Shown in pieces: positions 2,952-56,270 of a DNA stretch of 56,610 nucleotides. The notes beneath the pieces were generated by a model. The model had not been told where the DNA came from. It made no database searches and saw only the letters and a program-made list of their open reading frames with translations. Position 1 is the stretch's first letter; every line of letters begins with the position of its first letter. The position numbers were made by a program, and so were the translations under genes. This DNA is from a bacterium (GTDB lineage Bacteria > Patescibacteriota > Minisyncoccia > UBA9983): NCBI GenBank assembly GCA_013152035.1, contig JAADHB010000026.1, forward strand, positions 1 to 56,610, read 5' to 3'.

Positions 2952-4637
2952 TTATTTTTGCAAACTGTCAAAATATTCCGGCGTGTTCGCGCTCATCCAT
3001 TTGAAAAGTTCCTTGGCGGCATAAAGAGCGCCGACATAGTTTCCAACCGGACCCTTTTCAAGAACTATACTAAAGGCGACCTTCGGATTTTCATACGGTA
3101 AAAAGCCGATAATCCACGAATTAACATGCGTTTTTGAAGATCCTATCTGAGCCGTTCCGCTTTTCGCCGCTATTTTAATATCCAAATTTCTCAGCCCCCT
3201 GGCAGTCCCCTCCGTGACAACCATCCTCATCCCCTCTTTTATTACTCGGAAATAACGCGCGGGGAGATTTGCCGAAGACTCCCAAGGTCTTACCTTGGTC
3301 CCCAAGGTAAGACCTTGGGAGTCCGGATTGAGAATATGCGGGCGGAGAATTTTGCCGTCGTTCGCGAAAGCGGCGGCGAAAACCGCCATCTGAATCGGAG
3401 TTACCTGGAAAAATCCCTGCCCGATACTGGCGTTGTAAGTGTCGCCGATTCTCCACACGGAGTCGTTTTTTCTTTTCATTTTCCACTCCGGACTCGGCAC
3501 CAGCCCCTTCGCCTCGCCCGCCAAATCAACGCCCGTTTTTGACCCCAACCCGAACTTCTCGGCATACTCCTTTATCTTTTTTATTCCCAGGCCCTTTATG
3601 TTTTCAAAGCCCCCGCCCACCTCGTAAAAATAAACATTTGAAGAATGGGCGAGCGCTTGGCGCATATCAACCCACCCCTGCTTTTTCCAATCGTAAAAAA
3701 CGCTTCTCTTGTCCGGGAAATACGGATTCGGAATGGAAATGCTTCCCGAGCTGAAAATTTTCTTTTCCGGGGTGATGTTGCCTTCGTTCAGCGCGCCGAT
3801 GGCGACAAGCGGTTTGACTATTGAGCCGGGCGTGTACACGCCGGAGACGGCCCTGTTCAAAAAAGGGTTGTCTTTGTCATTGATGAATTCATTGATTTTT
3901 TCTCTCGGCCCCCCGGCGGAAAGAACGCCCGAGTCATATTCGGGATAATTCGTGAGAGCCAATACGCCGCCGTTTTTTATGTCCAAAAGCACTCCGGCGC
4001 CGCCGTGAAAACCGCGATCCCGAATAATTTTTTCCATCGCCTTGTAAAACTCCGACTGAACTCTCGCGTCAATGGTCAGATGAATATCGTCCCCGTCCTC
4101 GGGCGCCTCCTGAACGCTTTCCGACACCGAATTGTTTTGCGAATCTGTTTCCAGTAGCTTCAGCCCCGGCTTGCCCGCCAAAACCGATTCGTATTCCCTC
4201 TCAACGCCCGCCTTCCCCACCGGCAAATCATGCAGAATTTTGCCGTCCCGCTCCCGCGGCAATCCGACATAACCCAAAATATGGCTCAAGCCGGGCAGGT
4301 CGGAATAGACCCTTGACTCCGGTCCGTTCCACGCCAGCTTCATTCCGTTTCTGTCGTATATCACCCCCCTGTTCGGGAGAATCGGCGCCGTTCTTAATCT
4401 GTTGTTTTCTCCTCTGGCGAAGAATACCGCCCCCTGCACCGCCTGCAAGTAGAAAATCTTGGCGAAAAAAAATACCATCACGGCGGCGAAAAAAATCGCC
4501 ACGCCGGTAAAAGTTTTCCTGCCGATCGGCTTCTCCACGCGCCCCTCAAAACGCCCCGTGTCAAAATCGGGGATGTTTTTGGAATCCATAAAAATTTCGT
4601 CGGGATAAATTTGAGATTCTCTTTTTTTTCTTCTCAT
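2952..4637 (-). CDS. mrdA: Penicillin-binding protein 2 (elongasome transpeptidase)
   Basis: 561 aa. N-terminal TM, SxxK (GSIVKP), SxN (SSNVYF), KxG (KSGTA). Located directly after mreBCD. Confidence 0.9.
   Translation of the reverse strand: MRRKKRESQIYPDEIFMDSKNIPDFDTGRFEGRVEKPIGRKTFTGVAIFFAAVMVFFFAKIFYLQAVQGAVFFARGENNRLRTAPILPNRGVIYDRNGMKLAWNGPESRVYSDLPGLSHILGYVGLPRERDGKILHDLPVGKAGVEREYESVLAGKPGLKLLETDSQNNSVSESVQEAPEDGDDIHLTIDARVQSEFYKAMEKIIRDRGFHGGAGVLLDIKNGGVLALTNYPEYDSGVLSAGGPREKINEFINDKDNPFLNRAVSGVYTPGSIVKPLVAIGALNEGNITPEKKIFSSGSISIPNPYFPDKRSVFYDWKKQGWVDMRQALAHSSNVYFYEVGGGFENIKGLGIKKIKEYAEKFGLGSKTGVDLAGEAKGLVPSPEWKMKRKNDSVWRIGDTYNASIGQGFFQVTPIQMAVFAAAFANDGKILRPHILNPDSQGLTLGTKVRPWESSANLPARYFRVIKEGMRMVVTEGTARGLRNLDIKIAAKSGTAQIGSSKTHVNSWIIGFLPYENPKVAFSIVLEKGPVGNYVGALYAAKELFKWMSANTPEYFDSLQK
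3277..3323. repeat. Nested palindromic element inserted in frame in mrdA
   Basis: gactcccaaggtcttaccttgg-tcc-ccaaggtaagaccttgggagtc: 22-bp perfect arms, each arm itself a CCAAGG..CCTTGG hairpin. It encodes DSQGLTLGTKVRPWES. The same core occurs at intergenic site 56226-56270. Confidence 0.85.
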
Positions 4638-4900: not shown

Positions 4901-4914
4901 ATTATACCACACTT
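4901..4914 (-). promoter_or_regulatory. Extended -10 promoter AAGTGTGGTATAAT, 6 nt upstream of the mreD ATG (leaderless-type)
   Basis: Minus strand reads aaagTGTGGTATAATgctgaaATGATG. Confidence 0.5.
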
Positions 4915-4945
4915 TCCCCGAAATCCGACTTCGGGGAAAGTGTGG
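4907..4945. repeat. Perfect hairpin with 16-bp arms overlapping the mreD -10 region
   Basis: ccacactttccccgaa-atccgac-ttcggggaaagtgtgg. Confidence 0.85.
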
Positions 4946-4964
4946 AGACTTAATCTCCAAGTGG

Positions 4965-4992
4965 TGGACAAATTAAACTGGCGTGGTATGGT
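4965..4992 (+). promoter_or_regulatory. Plus-strand promoter for the small ORF 5024..5197
   Basis: TGGACA (4965-4970), 16-nt spacer, TGG-TATGGT (4984-4992). Confidence 0.4.
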
Positions 4993-5023
4993 TTAAGTAG
5001 AAATAAAAACTAAAGGAGGTTTT

Positions 5024-5197
5024 ATGCCAGAAACAAAAGAAAAGACTGAAAAAGAGAGAAAAACAAAACAACAAATAAGAGAAGAGCTTATCAAGGAATA
5101 TGAAAAACTCGGTTGGGAGAAGTTCCTTGATGAGATAGTAGGAATGATGTACGAAGTTCAAGAGGAGTTGGAGGACTACAGAATGGGAAGGAAGTAG
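5024..5197 (+). CDS. Small highly charged helical protein (57 aa), opposite strand, inside the mre operon
   Basis: Below the ORF-track size cutoff. AAAGGAGG SD 4 nt before the ATG. Sequence: MPETKEKTEKERKTKQQIREELIKEYEKLGWEKFLDEIVGMMYEVQEELEDYRMGRK. A hairpin plus T-run follows. Confidence 0.45.
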   Translation: MPETKEKTEKERKTKQQIREELIKEYEKLGWEKFLDEIVGMMYEVQEELEDYRMGRK

Positions 5198-5203
5198 TCT
5201 AAC

Positions 5204-5245
5204 CCCCCACTTGGAGATTGAGTCTCCAAGTGGGGGTGTTTTTTA
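5204..5245 (+). terminator. Family-1 palindrome acting as an intrinsic terminator for the small plus-strand ORF
   Basis: cccccacttggaga-ttgag-tctccaagtggggg (14-bp arms) followed by tgttttttatt. Confidence 0.6.
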
Positions 5246-6040
5246 TTTGGGGGTTAGGGTTATGTATTTCAGTTCTTGGAGATTGAGCGGGAGGCGGAAG
5301 AGGATTTTTTGGAAGGGGTCGGCGGGATTGACTTGGATTTTTTCCACGATGCCGATAACCAGGGAATTGACGCCGAGGGTGGCGACTCGTTCGCCGATTT
5401 TAACTTCAACGGCCCTCGGAAGTATGATTTCAAGATTGCCCCCGCCCCGCCCGGAAGCGGCAACCGCCACCCCGGATTCGCCGAGCGCGACGGTTGTTTC
5501 TTCGCCCGGAAAGGAAATCATCCTGACCTTGCTTGTTGACGGAAAAACCTCGGAAACATAGCCCACCAGAATATCTCCGTAAGCCGCCGCCTCCATCCCT
5601 TTCTCAACTCCATCCTTTGAACCGGCGTCCAAAATCAAAGTGTCGTAAGGAGAGCGGGGCGGACGGGAAAGAATCGCGGCGGCGATTCTCTTTTCCTCCC
5701 CCGCGCGCGACAAAATCGCCTTCAATTCTTCGTTCTCCTTTTTTATTATTCCGTACGACAAAAGCTTCGCGGCGGTGGTGGAAACTTCCTCCTTCAAGCC
5801 GCGATTCTCCTCTTCAAGCGCTTTTTTTTCTTTCATTATCGCGATGTTTCCGCCAAACCACTCCCCGACCGAATTGCTCATTTTTAAAAACGGCCGCGCC
5901 GCCCCCATCACCGGAACGGACACCAGGCGAGCCGCGGAATCATTGAATATCATCAAAACCAAAAAAAGCGCGGCAGCCGCGACGGCAAAAACCGCCCTCT
6001 TGCCGCCCCTTTTTTTATTGCGGTGGTAATTCATCTTCAT
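5243..6040 (-). CDS. mreC: Rod shape-determining protein MreC
   Basis: 265 aa. N-terminal TM, coiled coil, then two beta-barrel-like segments. Lies directly downstream of mreB. Confidence 0.85.
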   Translation of the reverse strand: MKMNYHRNKKRGGKRAVFAVAAAALFLVLMIFNDSAARLVSVPVMGAARPFLKMSNSVGEWFGGNIAIMKEKKALEEENRGLKEEVSTTAAKLLSYGIIKKENEELKAILSRAGEEKRIAAAILSRPPRSPYDTLILDAGSKDGVEKGMEAAAYGDILVGYVSEVFPSTSKVRMISFPGEETTVALGESGVAVAASGRGGGNLEIILPRAVEVKIGERVATLGVNSLVIGIVEKIQVNPADPFQKILFRLPLNLQELKYITLTPK

Positions 6041-8526: not shown

Positions 8527-9300
8527 TCAAACCTTCCTTGAAAGAATGTCTCCTAATTGCTTCACCAACTCGCGCTCCTTCTTGAGCGCGAGTTTGAGAT
8601 TGCGCCTCTCTCTTAACAACGACGCAATCTCTTCGTTTCTCTCTTTAATTTTTTCACTCTCCTTCTTTGTAAGCGCGAGTTTCAACTCGCGCTCGTCCGC
8701 GACGAGCTCTCCCACTTCCTTCCTGAGAAGAAAGGTGGAGAGCCCAAGGAGAATAATTATGAAGATCGCAATAATCGCCGCGATCGCCTCCTTTGCTCTT
8801 CTGTTATAGAGGGTGTCAATTGAGTCTATCCTCACCTTCGCCAGGATTGAATTAAGCCTGGCGTTCTCGGCGGAGAGGGCGCCTAGCCTTTTGTTTGCAT
8901 TCTCAACTTTCCGCAATGGATCACGGAAAGTTGGTCTCAATAATTCCGAGGGAATGAAAATCTCATCCCCGGGATATATCAAGTCCGCTTCCTCCACAGA
9001 AATCCTGTTTGCCTTTACTAGCGCAAACAGGGAACCGACTCCCTTTTTGCAGAATTTCTGGGCGATACCTGAGTAGGTGTCGCCCGGTAAAACGGTTACC
9101 GTTGTCCCGGGTGGGACGACCCCCAGCTCCGCCCTAATGTCGGCGACTGGGGTTCCAAGTTCCGCCTGGATGGCGGAGACTGGTGTCCCGGTGATCTCTG
9201 CCCTGGATGGGACCGCTAGGCAGAGGATAACAAAAGCCAAGATAAACAAAACTGCAAAAATAATCTTGATCATTTCAAAAACATCCCGTTTTTTCTCCAT
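8527..9300 (-). CDS. LysM-domain membrane protein with coiled coils
   Basis: 257 aa. AAGGAGG SD, N-terminal TM, LysM motif (VLPGDTYSGIAQKF...IYPGDEIFIP), a second TM and K/E-rich coiled coils. Confidence 0.75.
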   Translation of the reverse strand: MEKKRDVFEMIKIIFAVLFILAFVILCLAVPSRAEITGTPVSAIQAELGTPVADIRAELGVVPPGTTVTVLPGDTYSGIAQKFCKKGVGSLFALVKANRISVEEADLIYPGDEIFIPSELLRPTFRDPLRKVENANKRLGALSAENARLNSILAKVRIDSIDTLYNRRAKEAIAAIIAIFIIILLGLSTFLLRKEVGELVADERELKLALTKKESEKIKERNEEIASLLRERRNLKLALKKERELVKQLGDILSRKV

Positions 9301-10658: not shown

Positions 10659-10723
10659 CTGATCTCCTCTTTTGACTCTTTTTGTACCCCCGGAAGCGAG
10701 TAAGTCGCTTCCGGGGAGTTGGT

Positions 10724-23504: not shown

Positions 23505-23531
23505 CCACTTGGAGGCCGAGCCTCCAAGTGG
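23505..23531. repeat. Family-1 palindrome (variant loop), 13 nt downstream of a TGTGGATAA box
   Basis: ccacttggagg-ccgag-cctccaagtgg. TGTGGATAA lies at 23482-23490. Confidence 0.85.
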
Positions 23532-23582: not shown

Positions 23583-23792
23583 ATGAAGAAAGACATTCAT
23601 CCAAAATACTTCGCGGACGCGGTTATAAAATGCGCTTGCGGAAATGAAATAAAAGCGGGGTCCACCAGAGAAAAAACCGAGGTGGAGATTTGCGGCGCCT
23701 GCCACCCGTTTTTTACCGGCAAAAAGAAGGTCATTGACACCGCCGGAAGGGTTGAGAAATTCAAACAAAGGATGGCGAAAGCAAAAGCCTAA
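23583..23792 (+). CDS. rpmE: 50S ribosomal protein L31
   Basis: 69 aa. MKKDIHPKY..., with a C..C...C..CHPF zinc ribbon. Confidence 0.93.
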
Positions 23793-23859: not shown

Positions 23860-24591
23860 ATGGAACCTAAGACCATTATCATGGAAATACGCGCCGGGGC
23901 GGGAGGCCGGGAAGCCTCCCTTTTCGCCATGGACCTCTTTGAAATGTACACGAAATACGCCGCGAAACAGGGATGGAAAACCAGTCTCGTGGACGAATCA
24001 AAAAGCGAAGGGGGCGGATACAAGGAAGTTGTTTTTGAGATTTCAGGAGAGGGCGCTTACAAAAAACTCAAGAATGAAAGCGGGGTGCACAGGGTGCAGA
24101 GAATTCCGGTGACGGAAAAGTCCGGCAGGGTTCACACCTCAACCGCTTCCGTCGCCGTGCTCGCCGAAGAACCGGAGAGAAAAATAGAAATCAGGCCCGA
24201 CGATCTTGAAATAACCTTTTCACGCTCCGGCGGGGCGGGAGGGCAAAATGTCAATAAAGTTGAAACGGCGGTGCGAATATTGCACAAACCGACCGGAGTC
24301 GTGGTGCGATCGGAGCAGCAGCGATCCCAGCAGAAAAACCGCGAAAAAGCGATGGGTATTTTGAAGGCGAAAATAGGACAAATGGCGGCGGAGCAAAGAA
24401 GCGGCGCCGTGGCGCAGGAAAGAAGGGAGCAGATCGGAACCCAAGACAGGTCCGAGAAAATCAGAACTTACAACTTTCCGCAAAACAGAATCACCGACCA
24501 CAGAATCAAAAAATCTTGGCACAACATTGAAAAAATAATGGCGGGCGACTTGGAGCCGGTCATTAAGAAAGTTTCTCAAATTCAAAACTGA
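23860..24591 (+). CDS. prfA: Peptide chain release factor 1 lacking the N-terminal domain 1
   Basis: 243 aa. It starts at the position equivalent to about residue 106 of E. coli RF1 ([17 protein letters not shown]). PxT codon-recognition motif ([14 protein letters not shown]) and GGQ ([10 protein letters not shown]) are present. An in-frame TGA lies 5 codons upstream of the ATG. Confidence 0.85.
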
Positions 24592-24619
24592 TGTTTCGCG
24601 AAACATCAGTTTTGAATTT
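24578..24619. terminator. Perfect 42-bp palindrome (bidirectional terminator) containing the prfA stop codon
   Basis: aaattcaaaactgatgtttcg|cgaaacatcagttttgaattt, flanked by A/T runs, between convergent genes. Confidence 0.65.
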
Positions 24620-27318: not shown

Positions 27319-27669
27319 TCAATTGCCTTTTCTTAAGGTTGTTGAAATCTTGTTAAAAATAAGCGTCAATTCCTGCGCCTCTTTCCATAATTTCTTCAAA
27401 CTTTTGTTTTCTTCGGGATTAGATCTTGCTAATAATTCAATCCAGTATTTAGTTTCTTGTATTTCCTTTCTGCAAATAAATATTTTATTTCTGAAATCTT
27501 TCTTGGAGCTTGCGCCATTGGCTTCACAGTAATTCGCGCCAACGCTGGTGGAAGATCTCATCAATTGAAAAATTATGTTTTTATTTATTTCGTCTTTTTT
27601 AATCTCCTTTAATAAATCTATTATGTTTTTGCTGAAATTTTTAGTTCTTTCTTCGAGGTCGTAATTCAT
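27319..27669 (-). CDS. Four-helix-bundle protein (23S rRNA intervening-sequence protein family)
   Basis: 116 aa. Motif SVGANYCEANGASSKKDFRNKIFICRKEIQETKYW, typical of this family. Confidence 0.8.
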   Translation of the reverse strand: MNYDLEERTKNFSKNIIDLLKEIKKDEINKNIIFQLMRSSTSVGANYCEANGASSKKDFRNKIFICRKEIQETKYWIELLARSNPEENKSLKKLWKEAQELTLIFNKISTTLRKGN

Positions 27670-32465: not shown

Positions 32466-33941
32466 TTATTTTAATTTTTTTTCAAGCGTTTCTCCCAGAA
32501 TTTTCGGGTTCACGCTCCCTCTTGTCTCCTTCATTCCCTGCCCGACCAAAAACTGGAGGAGAGCTTCTTTGCCGCTTTTATACCCCTCCGCCTCCGTGGG
32601 GTTTTCCACGATTATTTTGTCAGCGAGTTTCTCTATCGCCGCCGCGTCGCTTGTCTGCTTCAACCCCATCTCGTCAACGATGGACGAAGGGTCGCCGCCC
32701 TTTTCAACCATTATTTTTAAAACATCCTTGCCGGCTCTGGATCCTATCTCCCCGGTTTTTATCATAGCGATAAGCTTCGCGAAATTTTTCGGAGAGGCGG
32801 GGAGATTTTCAAACGCCGGACCGCCACCGGCATCTTTCATTATGCTCTGCAAATCAGTGGTAAGATAATTCGCCGCCAAAGAAATCAATTCTCCACTTGG
32901 ACACTTAGTGTCCAAGTGGGGCAGTTCGGCGGCGACCTCCTCAAAATAGTCCGCGAATTTTTTGTCGCGAATAAAAACTTCCGTTTGTTCGCCATTGAGC
33001 CCGTATTCTTTTTTGAACCGTTCCCGTTTCTGCTGGGGAAGTTCCGGGGTGGGCATATCGCCCAAATCCAGATTGGTTAAATTCAACGCGGGCAGATCGG
33101 GTTCCGGGAAATACCGGTAGTCATGCGATTCTTCTTTTTCCCGCTGTGAAAATGTTTCTTGTTTATCCTCATTCCATCCGCGCGTTTCCTGGATGATTTT
33201 TTCTCCCACGTCCAACGCTCTCGCCTGCCTTTCAATTTCATAATTTATCGCCCGCTCCACGGCGCGAAAAGAATTAAGGTTTTTAACCTCAACCTTGGTG
33301 CCAAGTTGACCCAACTTGGAGATTGAGTCTCCAAGTGAACTTGGAGACTCAATCTCCAAGTTGGCGGGCTTAATTGAAATATTCGCCTCCACGCGCATCT
33401 GCCCCTTTTCCATATTCGCGTCCGATACCCCGAGGCAGAGAAAAATCAGCCGCAATTCTTCCGCGAATTTTCTCGCCTCCTCCCCGCTCTTTATGTCCGG
33501 TTCCGTCACAAGCTCCATTAAAGGAAGTCCGGCGCGATTAAAATCAACCAAACTGCCGTCCTTGCCGTGGACGAGCTTGCCCGTGTCTTCCTCAAGATGA
33601 ACACGGGTTATCTTGACTCCGTTCAACTCTCCCCCGCTCACGAGCGGATACTTGTACTGAGATATTTGGTAACCCTTCGGCAGGTCGGGATAAAAATAAT
33701 TTTTTCTGTCAAAGCGCGATCGCTCCGCCAGCCGTCCGCCCAACGCCTTGCCGACCATCAGCACTTTTTTCACCGCCTCTTTATTGATAACGGGCAGAGT
33801 CCCCGGATGACCCATGCAGACCGGGCACACGTTCACATTCGGGCGTTTTTCGTCCGGATTATTTGGAGAGCCGCAAAACATTTTGGTTCGCGTATTCAAC
33901 TCCGCGTGAATCTCCAAGCCGATTGTAGTTTCGTATTTCAT
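32466..33941 (-). CDS. gatB: Asp/Glu-tRNA(Asn/Gln) amidotransferase subunit B
   Basis: 491 aa. MKYETTIGLEIHAELNT..., the KNLNSF motif and a YqeY-like tail. It contains two palindrome-derived insertions. Confidence 0.93.
   Translation of the reverse strand: MKYETTIGLEIHAELNTRTKMFCGSPNNPDEKRPNVNVCPVCMGHPGTLPVINKEAVKKVLMVGKALGGRLAERSRFDRKNYFYPDLPKGYQISQYKYPLVSGGELNGVKITRVHLEEDTGKLVHGKDGSLVDFNRAGLPLMELVTEPDIKSGEEARKFAEELRLIFLCLGVSDANMEKGQMRVEANISIKPANLEIESPSSLGDSISKLGQLGTKVEVKNLNSFRAVERAINYEIERQARALDVGEKIIQETRGWNEDKQETFSQREKEESHDYRYFPEPDLPALNLTNLDLGDMPTPELPQQKRERFKKEYGLNGEQTEVFIRDKKFADYFEEVAAELPHLDTKCPSGELISLAANYLTTDLQSIMKDAGGGPAFENLPASPKNFAKLIAMIKTGEIGSRAGKDVLKIMVEKGGDPSSIVDEMGLKQTSDAAAIEKLADKIIVENPTEAEGYKSGKEALLQFLVGQGMKETRGSVNPKILGETLEKKLK
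32893..32919. repeat. Family-1-like palindrome in frame inside gatB (tail domain)
   Basis: ccacttggacac-tta-gtgtccaagtgg (12-bp arms). It encodes PHLDTKCPSG. Confidence 0.85.
33311..33364. repeat. Double family-1 palindrome in frame inside gatB (catalytic body)
   Basis: ccaacttggagattgagtctccaagt-ga-acttggagactcaatctccaagttgg: 26-bp perfect arms, each holding the cttggaga..tctccaag hairpin. It encodes NLEIESPSSLGDSISKLG. Confidence 0.9.
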
Positions 33942-37366: not shown

Positions 37367-37395
37367 CCCACTTGGAGTTTGAGTCTCCAAGTGGG
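37367..37395. repeat. Family-1 palindrome upstream of the scpA promoter, next to a TGTGGATAT box
   Basis: cccacttggag-tttgagt-ctccaagtggg. ATATCCACA lies at 37401-37409. The scpA -10 TGCTATAAT is at 37357..37349. Confidence 0.85.
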
Positions 37396-37459: not shown

Positions 37460-37512
37460 ATTATGGCTTCGGCCTCCGAGGACCCCGCGCTTGCGCGGGG
37501 TCCGATTTGTTT
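37460..37512 (+). ncRNA. Candidate ~50-nt sRNA convergent with the MazF-like gene
   Basis: TTGACT (37426-31), 16-nt spacer, TATACT (37448-53). A perfect hairpin ggaccccgcg-cttg-cgcggggtcc (37480-37503) is followed by GAUUUGUUU. No plus-strand gene is nearby. Confidence 0.3.
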
Positions 37513-37894
37513 ACAGCAACTGCAGCCACGCTTGCCTTAAAGAACTAAAAGATTTTTTGTTCAGCACATCAACTTTTCTCAGTAATCTTTTATTGCTTAC
37601 GAGTCTTACTTGTGTAAGCTTTGCCCAGATGGTTTTTTCTTCTGTTTGAATTTTATAATGAAATTTGTCATCTTTCTGCTTCGTGGTTAAAGGCAGAACA
37701 ACCATGGTTTCTTTATTGTAGACTTTCATAATTATTACGGGTCTTTCAAAATTTTCATTTTTCCCATCAATTTCAGCGCCGAGATTTAGACCAAGGGAAC
37801 ACCACCATATTTCTCTAGGGTGTATATATTTTTTTATATCAACTTCTTCAAGCTTCTTTTTTATTGAATTCCATTTGTCAAAATCTTTTTTCAT
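37511..37894 (-). CDS. PemK/MazF-family toxin-like protein (solo type with an N-terminal extension)
   Basis: 127 aa. REIWWCSLGLNLGAEIDGKNENFERPVIIM...VVLPLTT...AKLTQVRLVSNKRL matches the MazF/PemK fold pattern (compare E. coli MazF GDLIWVDFDP..G.EQAGHRPAVVLS). Confidence 0.65.
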   Translation of the reverse strand: MKKDFDKWNSIKKKLEEVDIKKYIHPREIWWCSLGLNLGAEIDGKNENFERPVIIMKVYNKETMVVLPLTTKQKDDKFHYKIQTEEKTIWAKLTQVRLVSNKRLLRKVDVLNKKSFSSLRQAWLQLL

Positions 37895-38229: not shown

Positions 38230-39066
38230 TTATTTCAATTTCTTCACTCTTTTCTTTTTTGGAAGATAATTCCTGCTTGTTGAAACTTTTTTGCCGGTTT
38301 TTCTTTCCAGATCTTTCCTCGCCTTGCCCGCTACGCTTCCGCCCTCTTTCGCGGCAATTTTATTCTTTTTCAGCCCTTGGGCGTTTTTATTTTTAGCGAT
38401 TTCCGTTGTTGAAGCCTCGCCCAACATCGTAAAGATTAGTTCCAAATCGTCCATATGGTCCCGCAAATTCTCCCTTTTCAATCCTTTCAGTTTTTGGTAT
38501 TCACTCGGCGTTATGCCAAAAGTCGCTTTTGATATTTCAGCCGTTAAAATCGCGTACTCCTGCCCCTCTTTCACCCCACGATTTTTCCATTCGTTTGTCA
38601 ATGTCGCGCGAACTTCAATGCCTCGCATTCTTTTTTCAATCCACGCGCCGGAATATCCCTTTGCCCTGTAAAGCGCCCTCGTTCTTTTTGTCGCCAGTTC
38701 CGGGTCCTCTATTTCTTTTACGCGCTCATAACCGACTTTTGCCAGCCAACGCTTGAAAGGTTCGGCTTTTGGCGAAGGGATTGATTGGATTATGCGAAAA
38801 ACACCTTCGGTGTTGGCGCAATCTGTCTCTCTCATTTTTCCATCAGGTGCCGGTAATTTCAACCCGTGACAAAATGTCACGACTTCACTTCCCTCATCCT
38901 TCAGTCTTTGTTTTAATTTTCTCCAATAAGCTCCTGCGTCAATACTGTCGGTTAAAGCGCCACAAACATCAATAACCGAAAACCACCATTCATTATTGTG
39001 AATAACTTTACGGACTTCTCTTTTTTGAAAAATCGCTATTTTTGTCGTTGTAATTTCTTTGTCCAT
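38230..39066 (-). CDS. Bro-N domain protein (DinD / phage antirepressor-like)
   Basis: 278 aa. N-terminal Bro-N motif (IHNNEWWFSVIDVCGAL...NTEGVFRIIQSI), a DinD-like middle region and a basic tail. Confidence 0.7.
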   Translation of the reverse strand: MDKEITTTKIAIFQKREVRKVIHNNEWWFSVIDVCGALTDSIDAGAYWRKLKQRLKDEGSEVVTFCHGLKLPAPDGKMRETDCANTEGVFRIIQSIPSPKAEPFKRWLAKVGYERVKEIEDPELATKRTRALYRAKGYSGAWIEKRMRGIEVRATLTNEWKNRGVKEGQEYAILTAEISKATFGITPSEYQKLKGLKRENLRDHMDDLELIFTMLGEASTTEIAKNKNAQGLKKNKIAAKEGGSVAGKARKDLERKTGKKVSTSRNYLPKKKRVKKLK

Positions 39067-51256: not shown

Positions 51257-51922
51257 TCAAACCAGATTGAATATGTAGGCTGTCGCCTCTATGGCGAATA
51301 AAAAATAAAAAAGAATTGAGCTTATCCAATACATTTTTTGTTGTTCAATGACACCGGCAATAAAGACCCCCATGCTGGCGACAAGGGCACCGGTATAACC
51401 CAAAAGAAGACCGGCGCTAAAAAGGGGTGATGATGGAAAAGGGCTAGCGATAAACAGCCCTACGATGGCAAAGGAGATGGCCCCCGCCGCAAACCATCCC
51501 TTTCTTGTTACGTTGGCTGCCCCCATACAGAGGAGCCCACCGAGGATGACGGCGAAAAAGGGATTAAATTTTCTTTCCCGCTTCTCCTCCTTTTCCACAT
51601 TCTCTACGATAAAACTATTGCTAGCCTTGTCGTAAGAGATTGTCTTTTTGCACTCTGTGATTGTGGCATAGTGCCACAATCCATCCCGCTCCTTGCGGGA
51701 CTCGCAAATCGGGACTTTTGTTCCCGGGGTAAGTTTCGCGATTAGCGACCCCCTCTGGTTGCTGATGATCGTTTCTGTGTCGTTGGTTTTAATCAACGAC
51801 CCTTCGGTAACTAGGCGAAATCTGCCCCTTTCTATCTTTACCTCCCCTTCCGTGGCATACGCCACGGAAGCTAAAACCACCATAACGACCAAAATCGCAA
51901 TCGCAAAAAATATCTTTTTCAT
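51257..51922 (-). CDS. Hypothetical protein: signal peptide, small extracytoplasmic domain, about 4 C-terminal TM helices
   Basis: 221 aa. AAAGGAGGAG SD. Starts MKKIFFAIAILVVMVVLASVAYA. Confidence 0.65.
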   Translation of the reverse strand: MKKIFFAIAILVVMVVLASVAYATEGEVKIERGRFRLVTEGSLIKTNDTETIISNQRGSLIAKLTPGTKVPICESRKERDGLWHYATITECKKTISYDKASNSFIVENVEKEEKRERKFNPFFAVILGGLLCMGAANVTRKGWFAAGAISFAIVGLFIASPFPSSPLFSAGLLLGYTGALVASMGVFIAGVIEQQKMYWISSILFYFLFAIEATAYIFNLV

Positions 51923-56225: not shown

Positions 56226-56270
56226 TTTTTTACAATTTCCCAAGGTAAGACCTTGGGAAATTGTAAAAAA
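56226..56270. terminator. Family-2 palindrome (21-bp arms) acting as a bidirectional terminator-like hairpin
   Basis: ttttttacaatttcccaaggt-aag-accttgggaaattgtaaaaaa. The core cccaaggtaagaccttggg is identical to the right half of the mrdA insertion. Confidence 0.65.

Follow-up and report, generated by a model that had tools for sequence, protein, structure and literature searches.

How does a perfect 54-bp palindrome come to lie, in frame, inside the coding sequence of a housekeeping gene, and what keeps it symmetric? The question is raised by a 56,610-nt stretch of DNA (contig JAADHB010000026.1 of assembly GCA_013152035.1; Patescibacteriota, Minisyncoccia, UBA9983). We call this 56.6-kb stretch the window, or WIN where it is compared with other sequences; related loci and contigs carry L-numbers, and proteins carry P-numbers. 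The palindrome, at positions 33311-33364, lies in the essential gene gatB, where it falls in a surface loop of the protein. It is an insertion, it consists of a short hairpin unit paired head to head with itself, and the same unit is dispersed elsewhere in the window. We consider the chances somewhat better than even that it is a dispersed short hairpin repeat copied into a permissive loop, kept symmetric by templated copying at the DNA level and translated as a disordered passenger.

The palindrome and its host gene

The host gene and the parts of the element are as follows.

32466..33941, minus strand: the host gene gatB, whose 491-aa product is Asp/Glu-tRNA amidotransferase subunit B (assigned from Pfam and homologues).
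33311..33364: two copies of the hairpin unit set head to head in the gatB reading frame; they encode NLEIESPSSLGDSISKL, part of the loop KPANLEIESPSSLGDSISKLGQL.
33314..33336: first unit, ACTTGGAGA-TTGAG-TCTCCAAGT.
33338..33362: unit 2 of the doublet, AACTTGGAGA-CTCAA-TCTCCAAGTT, the same unit with its loop inverted.
33301..33310: extra half-site CCAAGTTGAC (gene strand GTCAACTTGG, encoding GQL).
33316..33600, plus strand: spurious antisense open reading frame (ORF), starting MEIESPSELGDSISKL, whose first 16 residues mirror the gatB insert (by translation).

The 491-aa product matches the Pfam families GatB_N (6.4e-107) and GatB_Yqey (4.1e-36), and its nearest database relatives are annotated as proteins of Patescibacteria or Parcubacteria metagenome-assembled genomes. 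A repeat search bore out the first-pass annotation, made from the sequence alone, in describing a 54-bp double palindrome with 26-bp perfect arms and inner hairpins. The arms (33311-33336 and 33339-33364) are 26 nt long and 100% complementary across a 2-nt spacer, and each is itself a hairpin with a 9-10-bp stem and a 5-nt loop. Translation and Pfam agree with the annotation's in-frame placement of the element, the protein reading ...ANISIKP-ANLEIESPSSLGDSISKLGQL-GTKVEVKNLNSF across the insert; the peptide stretch LEIESPSSLGDSISK belongs to the hairpin-encoded part. The annotation was also right to attribute the antisense ORF to symmetry: it starts as it does because palindromic DNA reads alike on both strands. 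Its pseudo-peptide (33313-33405, plus strand) gave 0 matches at E <= 0.001 against representative proteins, a search that says little at such a short match length. No candidate protein shared words with a 46-aa composite of the element translation.

Folded as mRNA, the doublet is predicted to form a single 25-bp helix of -49.1 kcal/mol (z = -10.9); the folding energy as DNA is -29.7 kcal/mol. The sequence downstream of the hairpin on the mRNA strand, GGGUCAACUUGGCACC, has no U-run, in contrast to an intrinsic terminator, whose G+C-rich hairpin is directly followed by one. A scan of the window with Rfam 15 returned a tRNA-Thr as its only match at the gathering threshold and none for the element.

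The half-site beside the doublet forms a mini-palindrome with the element end, with 8-nt arms (33301-33308 with 33312-33319). The 8-nt sequence CCAAGTTG occurs as a direct repeat at 33301-33308 and 33356-33363, 55 nt apart and overlapping the palindrome end. We considered it as a target-site duplication and rejected it: the repeat belongs to the palindrome's own symmetry, and deleting one copy with the intervening DNA shifts the frame. Matching TTG codons flank a 45-nt stretch of the insert, with no stop after the first TTG. Programmed translational bypass, as in T4 gene 60 and the mitochondrial 'byps', requires matched take-off and landing codons around a gap that a stop codon or frameshift makes undecodable in frame; the insert is in frame and stop-free here and in all 35 expanded loops of the 163 loci described below. 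Obligatory ribosomal bypass of the insert is disfavored, and it is scarcely credible that ribosomes hop between the two flanking TTG codons, skipping the 45 nt.

The GatB loop across Patescibacteria

gatB genes and their flanking DNA were compared across 80 genomes of GTDB species, 80 contigs from metagenomes, and 7 close relatives. With the loop defined between ...N(I/V)S and G(T)K.E.KNLNS, the pattern matched 160 of 163 Patescibacteria loci. The first-pass annotation had given about 6 residues at this place in other GatB proteins, which is correct: the loop has 6-8 aa in 115 of the 160 matched loci and 6 aa in the 3 loci missed by the pattern, and when the protein is aligned by HMMER to GatB from Aquifex and Thermotoga (sequences of PDB 3H0L and 3AL0) a 15-residue gap opens at the insert. 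Loops under 12 aa (125 loci) never contain a perfect inverted repeat of at least 8 nt; among the 35 longer ones (at least 12 aa) 23 do, and the rest are mostly imperfect palindromes or short tandem repeats. Long loops of unrelated, non-palindromic DNA in relatives, named in the annotation as an observation that would count against it, are therefore not the pattern seen. The reading frame is intact and free of stops in all 163 gatB loci.

The annotation had called the loop conserved, and this did not stand. A scan of whole genes found at least one perfect inverted repeat (arm of at least 10 nt) in 35 of 168 gatB genes, 49 such repeats in all, compared to 3 after codon shuffling. The repeats cluster at WIN residues 190-210 (18 repeats), 290-300 (7), and 340-360 (12), and the insertion loop is one of these three hypervariable hot spots of Patescibacteria gatB. 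In-frame palindromes equivalent to that of the window occur at the same codon position in independent NCBI, JGI, and ENA assemblies from different groups. The palindromes at this loop in L009, L003, and L094 have sequences quite different from the family to which the window unit belongs, which we name ACTTGG after its stem base. That of L009 is a 63-bp doublet of unrelated sequence with 28-nt arms, and the 23-nt unit of which it is built is found again 6 kb off, at two gene boundaries, with a T-run following at one of them (L009:3979).

Other repeats were seen at the three hot spots. Loop 1 is expanded in L005, L011, and L018 by the tandem repeats AAATCC, CCCAAAT, and CACCCAA (peptides NPKSQIPNPK and TQHPTPN), so that it tolerates several kinds of repeat-driven expansion. 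In loop 2 of L088 (L088:10984-11035), two copies of one hairpin unit stand in direct orientation, 31 nt apart, and are read in two frames, as LETEFPS and LGNRVSKL. The third hot spot (about WIN residue 295) holds a 24-nt ACTTGG-type hairpin, CTTGGTTTCCAAACGGAAACCAAG, with the peptide KLGFQTETKFP, in L002 (10892-10915) and identically in L165 (1955-1978).

Symmetry and turnover of the orthologous doublets

A doublet occupies the same gatB codons in 8 orthologues (WIN, L083, L164, L081, L001, L165, L166, and L015). All have common ends, AACTTGGA...TCCAAGTT, starting (A/C)ACTT(G/A)GA and finishing TC(C/T)AAGTT, and their interiors vary (GAGATTGAGTCTC, GAAACTGGATTTC, GACACTCGGTGTC, and others). 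In an alignment of the 7 distinct doublets the long hairpin is 98% paired, and 11 of its 24 pairs have changed on both sides, with 0 one-sided changes and 0 G-U pairs. The co-variation includes the 5-nt loops in the two units, which change as mutual reverse complements. A model of two small hairpins also fits the alignment, with less co-variation. Since the Watson-Crick symmetry includes the loops, it points to copying of one arm from the other and not to selection on RNA pairing.

Two pairs of loci illustrate how the element and its surroundings have changed (nucleotide identity of the flanks is given for 150 nt upstream and downstream).

WIN and L083: GatB 87% identical; flanks 81% and 91%; palindrome 37/50.
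L083 and L164: GatB 71% identical; flanks 68% and 68%; palindrome 50/50.

Every one of the 13 positions of 50 that differ between WIN and L083 lies inside the identical ends. To judge from such pairs, element similarity is decoupled from the phylogeny of the host gene. After the doublet, WIN has 9 extra nt, GTCAACTTG (encoding GQL), and reads ...CCAAGTTGGGTCAACTTGGCACC, compared to ...CCAAGTTGGGCACC in L083. These 9 nt are the reverse complement of the adjoining element end, which is the signature that a fold-back would leave. A check for polymorphism among sister genomes, proposed in the first-pass annotation, gave a positive answer in these differing interiors and again in the trio L081, L167, and L168 (86-87% identical), which have, respectively, a perfect doublet, a decayed single hairpin preceded by slippage repeats, and no palindrome. 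L168 is thus a relative at 86-87% identity that lacks the insertion. An element without polymorphism, part of the other observation that the annotation named as counting against it, is therefore not what is seen either.

Position of the insert in the protein

An AlphaFold2 model of the window GatB has a mean predicted local distance difference test score (pLDDT) of 82.9. Residues 193-216 lie between strands 182-192 and 217-222 of the model, and residues 196-211 have pLDDT values below 50. From the correspondence of motifs with Staphylococcus aureus GatB (KME 183-185 and F217), we infer that the insert occupies the beta11-beta12 turn of the cradle domain. In a docking model the acceptor-stem U1-A72 pair is surrounded by alpha3, the beta12-alpha3 and beta13-beta14 loops, and the 3(10) turn before beta11 (PMC2811023); the beta11-beta12 turn is not among the elements named there. 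The interiors of the insert-derived peptides differ freely (IESPS, TGFPS, TRCPS, TKSPN), and the only conserved residues are those set by the DNA ends. Translation of the units uses just two frames, both hydrophilic: L-E/D-x-x-x-P-S and L-G-x-x-x-S-K-L.

Copies of the unit in the window and in other genes

Further members of the family, and doublets or hairpins of a second family, occur in the window at the following places.

5204..5236, plus strand: intergenic copy, CCCCCACTTGGAGATTGAGTCTCCAAGTGGGGG then TGTTTTTTAT, with a C5/G5-extended stem, directly after the small ORF 5024..5197.
5275..5288, plus strand: partial copy CTTGGAGATTGAGC, left arm and loop only.
4941..4966: degenerate copy, inverted relative to 5204-5236.
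37367..37395: intergenic copy CCCACTTGGAGTTTGAGTCTCCAAGTGGG, with 1 mismatch in the 21-nt core, between a mazF-like gene and scpA.
23505..23531: member of the family, between genes, whose stem top differs, CCACTTGGAGG-CCG-AGCCTCCAAGTGG, upstream of rpmE.
32893..32919: second family member in gatB, the single hairpin CCACTTGGACAC-TTA-GTGTCCAAGTGG, in frame (PHLDTKCPSG) in the variable linker of the helical domain.
2952..4637, minus strand: PBP2/MrdA gene.
3277..3323: 47-bp doublet of a second hairpin family, in frame in PBP2/MrdA, with 22-nt arms and units CCAAGGTCTTACCTTGG and CCAAGGTAAGACCTTGG, peptide DSQGLTLGTKVRPWES.
56226..56270: intergenic terminator-like hairpin with the 19-nt unit CCCAAGGTAAGACCTTGGG, as in the PBP2 doublet.

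The 21-nt core of the gatB unit, CTTGGAGATTGAGTCTCCAAG, recurs exactly at 5210-5230; with the flanking A and T, 5209-5231 matches 33314-33336 at 23 of 23 positions. It recurs with 1 mismatch at 37371-37391 and as a compensated stem variant at 23508-23528, the chance expectation for such matches in the window being 0.00-0.02. The first-pass annotation had listed 5204-5236, 37367-37395, and 23505-23531 as single-unit copies between genes; the first two are such copies (exact and with 1 mismatch), and the last is a stem variant rather than the same unit. The copies at 4941-4966, 5275-5288, and 32893-32919 go beyond its list. The last of these falls in the gatB hot spot at residues 340-360, and the sister locus L083 has there a longer perfect version with 18-19-nt arms. 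The 8-mers ACTTGGAG and CTCCAAGT occur together 14 times in the 56.6 kb, nearly always inside hairpins. Neither the exact 23-nt unit nor the generic doublet pattern had a match in viral contigs.

The copy at 5204-5236 headed a scan of the window for terminator-like structures, with 15 pairs (9 of them G-C) and a following T-run that qualified as a U-run. The intergenic copies probably act as intrinsic terminators or RNA-end hairpins. In the mreC-mreD spacer, the inverted copies at 4941-4966 and 5204-5236 enclose a stretch of ~270 nt with a 57-aa ORF (5024..5197, plus strand) that has its own strong Shine-Dalgarno sequence and no Pfam match. The copy at 4941-4966 adjoins another hairpin, at 4907-4945, with the stem base CACTT...AAGTG. 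The sister contig L169 (380-580) has one hairpin in place of window positions 4907-5290 and lacks this stretch, which may be a small cassette bounded by the hairpin repeat.

Such insertions are not peculiar to gatB. In the window itself, PBP2 carries a doublet of its own, and the ACTTGG family itself is found in frame in PBP2 and GAPDH elsewhere. A 44-bp perfect ACTTGG-family palindrome encodes NLEAPLPLGSGASKL in the PBP2 loop of L170 (L170:4039-4082), the one locus checked at the level of DNA, and the sister contig L169 has, at the PBP2 position of the window doublet, a palindrome that is diverged and imperfect. The neighboring GAPDH gene of L164 (2422-3402) holds at 2580-2600 a 21/21 copy of that genome's gatB unit, encoding LETGFPS and read in the same frame as in gatB. 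An alignment of the window PBP2 with the solved proteobacterial PBP2 shows no gap at the loop and so does not by itself demonstrate an insertion; by eye, in the printed alignment, the loops of WIN and P0122 are ~5-8 residues longer than in most Patescibacteria relatives. In this same variable loop, PBP2 proteins from other Patescibacteria (P0148, P0159, P0164, P0152, P0157, P0167, and P0174) show palindrome-like peptides such as LPLGSGASKL, QGLPLENSKGSPW, and EGPSFA.SAKDGPS.

The window as a whole is rich in hairpins, with 27 perfect ones having stems of at least 9 bp, compared to 1-8 in shuffled sequences; a crude greedy ORF map scored 17 of the 27 as intra-ORF and wrongly counted at least 23505-23531 as coding. 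Long perfect hairpins of other families (stems of 10-21 bp) stand at gene boundaries at 200-244, 24578-24619, 10688-10716, and 37480-37503, and pairs of hairpins lie within hypothetical ORFs (585-613 and 723-754; 8567-8594 and 8672-8693; 51659-51681 and 51847-51870). The genes 27319..27669, 37511..37894, and 38230..39066 encode a 23S-rRNA-intervening-sequence protein, a MazF-like toxin, and a Bro-N domain protein, types often tied to mobile or accessory DNA. At the locus corresponding to 37367-37395, the 73% identical relative L081 has phoH instead and no hairpin. The class-I release factor encoded at 23860..24591 has only 243 aa, with a Pfam PCRF match beginning at profile position 99; it keeps the PVT and GGQ motifs and lacks the N-terminal domain. 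A programmed frameshift in this gene, which lies next to the 23505 hairpin, was considered and rejected, since the upstream ORF 23583..23792 is rpmE (L31) and not a frameshifted prfB leader.

Origin and maintenance of the element

The explanation we favor starts from a family of hairpins with a conserved stem base, ACTTGG...CCAAGT, often extended to CCCC...GGGG, and a stem top and loop that are free to vary. Copies would arise in genes as well as between them, and the survivors would be those in frame and stop-free in structurally permissive loops. The GatB doublet would be one such survivor, in the turn between the long strands bearing the ANIS and GTKVEVKNLNSF motifs, where it would be translated into a disordered loop ~15 residues longer than usual with no catalytic role, a passenger whose peptide is presumably neutral. 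Its symmetry would be made and renewed on DNA, by fold-back or template-switch synthesis in which one arm is copied from the other, with the conserved ACTTGG and CCAAGT ends serving as microhomology and the interior overwritten from other family members in the genome; selection on RNA pairing would not be what keeps it. Template switching can both create and maintain perfect stems (PMC8794818), and we take it, rather than a transposase, to be the likely copying mechanism. Templated copying is favored because WIN and L083 share ends, length, and position and yet have had the interior replaced, and because G-U pairs are absent, a 9-nt fold-back addition is present, and no target-site duplication was found.

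The main rival is that the element is a non-autonomous transposon, like the doublets of repetitive extragenic palindromes (REPs) known as REPINs or like a MITE (a miniature transposable element with inverted repeats). A HUH/Y1 transposase (a REP-associated tyrosine transposase, RAYT, or one of IS200/IS605 type) or some other transposase encoded elsewhere in the genome would recognize ACTTGG...CCAAGT, and the single hairpins would be decayed remnants. The inverted doublet is the architecture of REPINs (PMC3116915), the conserved stem base could serve as a recognition site, and the family has reached unrelated sites in three gatB loops, PBP2, and GAPDH. A 50-nt element is identical between genomes whose GatB proteins are only 71% identical, and the small-ORF cassette of ~270 nt lies between inverted unit copies and is absent from the sister contig. 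This rival is the better account of first arrivals at new sites. However, the hairpins begin as C-runs followed by ACTTGG, without the GTAG or CGTC tag at their ends (cf. PMC3733652); the doublet of L088 is direct rather than inverted; and no target-site duplication was found, the sole 8-nt direct-repeat candidate being part of the palindrome. The exchange of the interior between WIN and L083, with ends, length, and position the same, resembles conversion and not excision followed by reinsertion. Pfam found no transposase domain in the ~58 ORFs of the window, a weak argument in that it covers only ~56 kb of the genome. On this evidence we regard transposition of this kind as unlikely.

The remaining alternatives invoke selection or error. 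A cis-acting mRNA structure in gatB, pausing ribosomes for cotranslational folding or assembly with GatA and GatC, or acting as an RNase processing or stability element, would accord with the high stability of the predicted helix (-49.1 kcal/mol, z = -10.9), with the retention of one position in at least 8 orthologues, and with the 11 pairs changed on both sides. It accords poorly with the lack of G-U pairs and one-sided intermediates and with the reverse-complement co-variation of the 5-nt unit loops, which RNA hairpins do not require. About three-quarters of Patescibacteria gatB genes, including that of L168, lack the insertion; copies of these units also lie in intergenic DNA and in other genes; unrelated palindromes and even simple tandem repeats fill the same loop in other lineages; and there is no Rfam match. 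We think such a structure improbable, and slightly more so an adaptive protein loop, in which the insert forms a new surface for tRNA, a non-discriminating aminoacyl-tRNA synthetase, or another partner and the DNA palindrome is incidental. The two hydrophilic frames and the keeping of the insertion in several lineages speak for a protein role, but peptide conservation is confined to residues set by the conserved DNA ends, pLDDT is below 50, the same peptides turn up in PBP2 and GAPDH, and selection on protein is not expected to produce a perfect 26-nt inverted repeat.

The uptake sequences of Neisseria and Pasteurellaceae often form inverted pairs that double as terminators and also occur in frame in variable protein regions. 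The hairpin ACTTGG...CCAAGT might be a signal for DNA uptake, or one recognized by a protein that binds DNA or RNA, under selection throughout the genome and accepted within coding DNA where possible; its outer stem is conserved across genomes at ~70% GatB identity and its interior is free. The low density of ACTTGGAG and CTCCAAGT (14 occurrences in 56.6 kb, almost all in hairpins) and the quite different palindromes at the same loop in L009, L003, and L094 make this very improbable, and neither function needs long perfect palindromes. Perfect palindromes can also come from multiple-displacement amplification or assembly errors, as a chimeric fold-back. In-frame palindromes at the same codon in assemblies from three independent sources, the match of the unit to a separate intergenic copy on the same contig, and the preservation of frame in all 163 loci reduce the probability of an artifact here to almost nothing.

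Several points weigh against the templated-copying explanation itself. In the 56.6 kb of genome examined, neither a mobilizing enzyme nor a target-site duplication was identified. The recurrence of the doublet at one codon in at least 8 orthologues, with a conserved ACTTGG/CCAAGT base, is compatible with a selected protein-binding site or mRNA structure, and the use of just two of three possible frames suggests that the peptide may be under some selection. For the appearance of the family at new sites, in PBP2, GAPDH, and three gatB loops, transposition is a more natural explanation than conversion by itself. The explanation also presumes that the intergenic copies act as terminators and that ribosomes translate through a hairpin of -49 kcal/mol.

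A broader proposal, which we find tentative and on balance doubtful, is that Patescibacteria have a transposase-free system of self-templating hairpins, in which the short conserved stem base would provide microhomology for template switching at replication, stem tops would be copied between loci, palindromes would double and repair themselves, and the permissive loops of GatB, PBP2, and GAPDH would be seeded and overwritten again and again. If true, self-templating hairpins would be a distinct route, still active, by which essential proteins in ultra-small bacteria acquire new loops. In any case, a single 54-bp feature opens onto a phylum-wide pattern of loops colonized and overwritten. A sizable share of the loop-length variation in these GatB and PBP2 proteins is repeat DNA rather than adaptive sequence (35 of 168 gatB genes have at least one perfect inverted repeat), and anyone who aligns Patescibacteria proteins, builds phylogenies or protein-family models from them, or predicts their structures has to reckon with it. 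Many independent events at one codon offer a natural system in which to study the creation of hairpins, the upkeep of their symmetry, and their exchange, and to set template switching against transposition, and the palindromes are ready markers of permissive insertion sites in GatB and PBP2.

Comparison with known systems

No prior description of such elements in the candidate phyla radiation (CPR)/Patescibacteria was found in the open-access literature, which is not proof of absence. Several known systems share some of their features. DNA uptake sequences consist of one oriented 9-12-mer at very high genome-wide density, mostly outside palindromes; the two 8-mers here number 14 in 56.6 kb, nearly all of them in hairpins. 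The palindromic amphipathic repeat coding elements (PARCELs) are also translated palindromic repeat DNA found across lineages, but they are longer tandem coding repeats that build surface proteins (PMC2996958), compared to the 50-bp insertions in loops of housekeeping enzymes seen here. The coding palindromes of Nematomorpha mitochondria are likewise perfect inverted repeats in functional genes with both arms translated; in these hairworms the arms reach 284 bp and lie in conserved protein regions (PMC6649704), whereas those described here are short, add residues in non-conserved loops, and match intergenic repeats. Template-switch mutations produce perfect stems in one step and apparent compensatory changes without G-U pairs (PMC8794818), which fits both the co-variation and the 9-nt addition. 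They have been described for RNA genes as local events (PMC8794818) and alone do not explain identical units at unlinked loci.

The copies at 5204-5236, 56226-56270, and L009:3979, with G+C-rich stems and T-runs at gene ends, are like intrinsic terminators and the terminator-like MITEs (SPRITE) of Streptococcus pneumoniae (PMC10969869). The gatB and PBP2 copies differ from both in lying within ORFs without a T-run, and ordinary terminators are not dispersed as identical units. A classical MITE has terminal inverted repeats and a target-site duplication; the gatB element is inverted repeat throughout, and its one flanking direct repeat, CCAAGTTG, overlaps the palindrome end.

REPs and REPINs come closer, being short palindromes (20-40 bp for REPs and 23-33 bp here) that form families within a genome and whose inverted pairs make a larger hairpin (PMC3116915, PMC3337134, PMC3733652). 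REPs are extragenic by definition, whereas 33311-33364, 32893-32919, and 3277-3323 are in frame in ORFs. REPs also carry a GTAG or CGTC tag at one end (PMC3733652), which the hairpins here lack, and no RAYT or other transposase domain was detected by Pfam in the ~58 ORFs of these 56.6 kb. They are imperfect palindromes paired across a spacer, and the units described here abut, with 0-6 nt between them, in coding DNA.

In-frame palindromic repeats in housekeeping genes are best known from Rickettsia, where dispersed palindromic elements lie between genes and in frame in unrelated housekeeping genes and the encoded peptide is thought to be compatible with the fold (PMC10969869). Like them, the elements described here are palindromic repeats both in ORFs and between genes, and both occur in small, reduced genomes. 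The Rickettsia elements are ~100-150 bp long, have family-specific conserved peptides, and are confined to Rickettsia. The unit described here has 21-31 bp, and its copies in coding DNA, mostly doublets, have 27-63 bp, with a free but perfectly complementary interior. One and the same loop has been hit or overwritten repeatedly in orthologues, the sequences are unrelated to those of the Rickettsia elements, and the hosts are Patescibacteria. The closest analogues of the gatB element are therefore the Rickettsia palindromic elements and the REPINs. Its size, its ends, and its position within genes set it apart from both groups, and it represents a smaller, doublet-forming, and perfectly self-complementary version of in-frame repeat in CPR/Patescibacteria.

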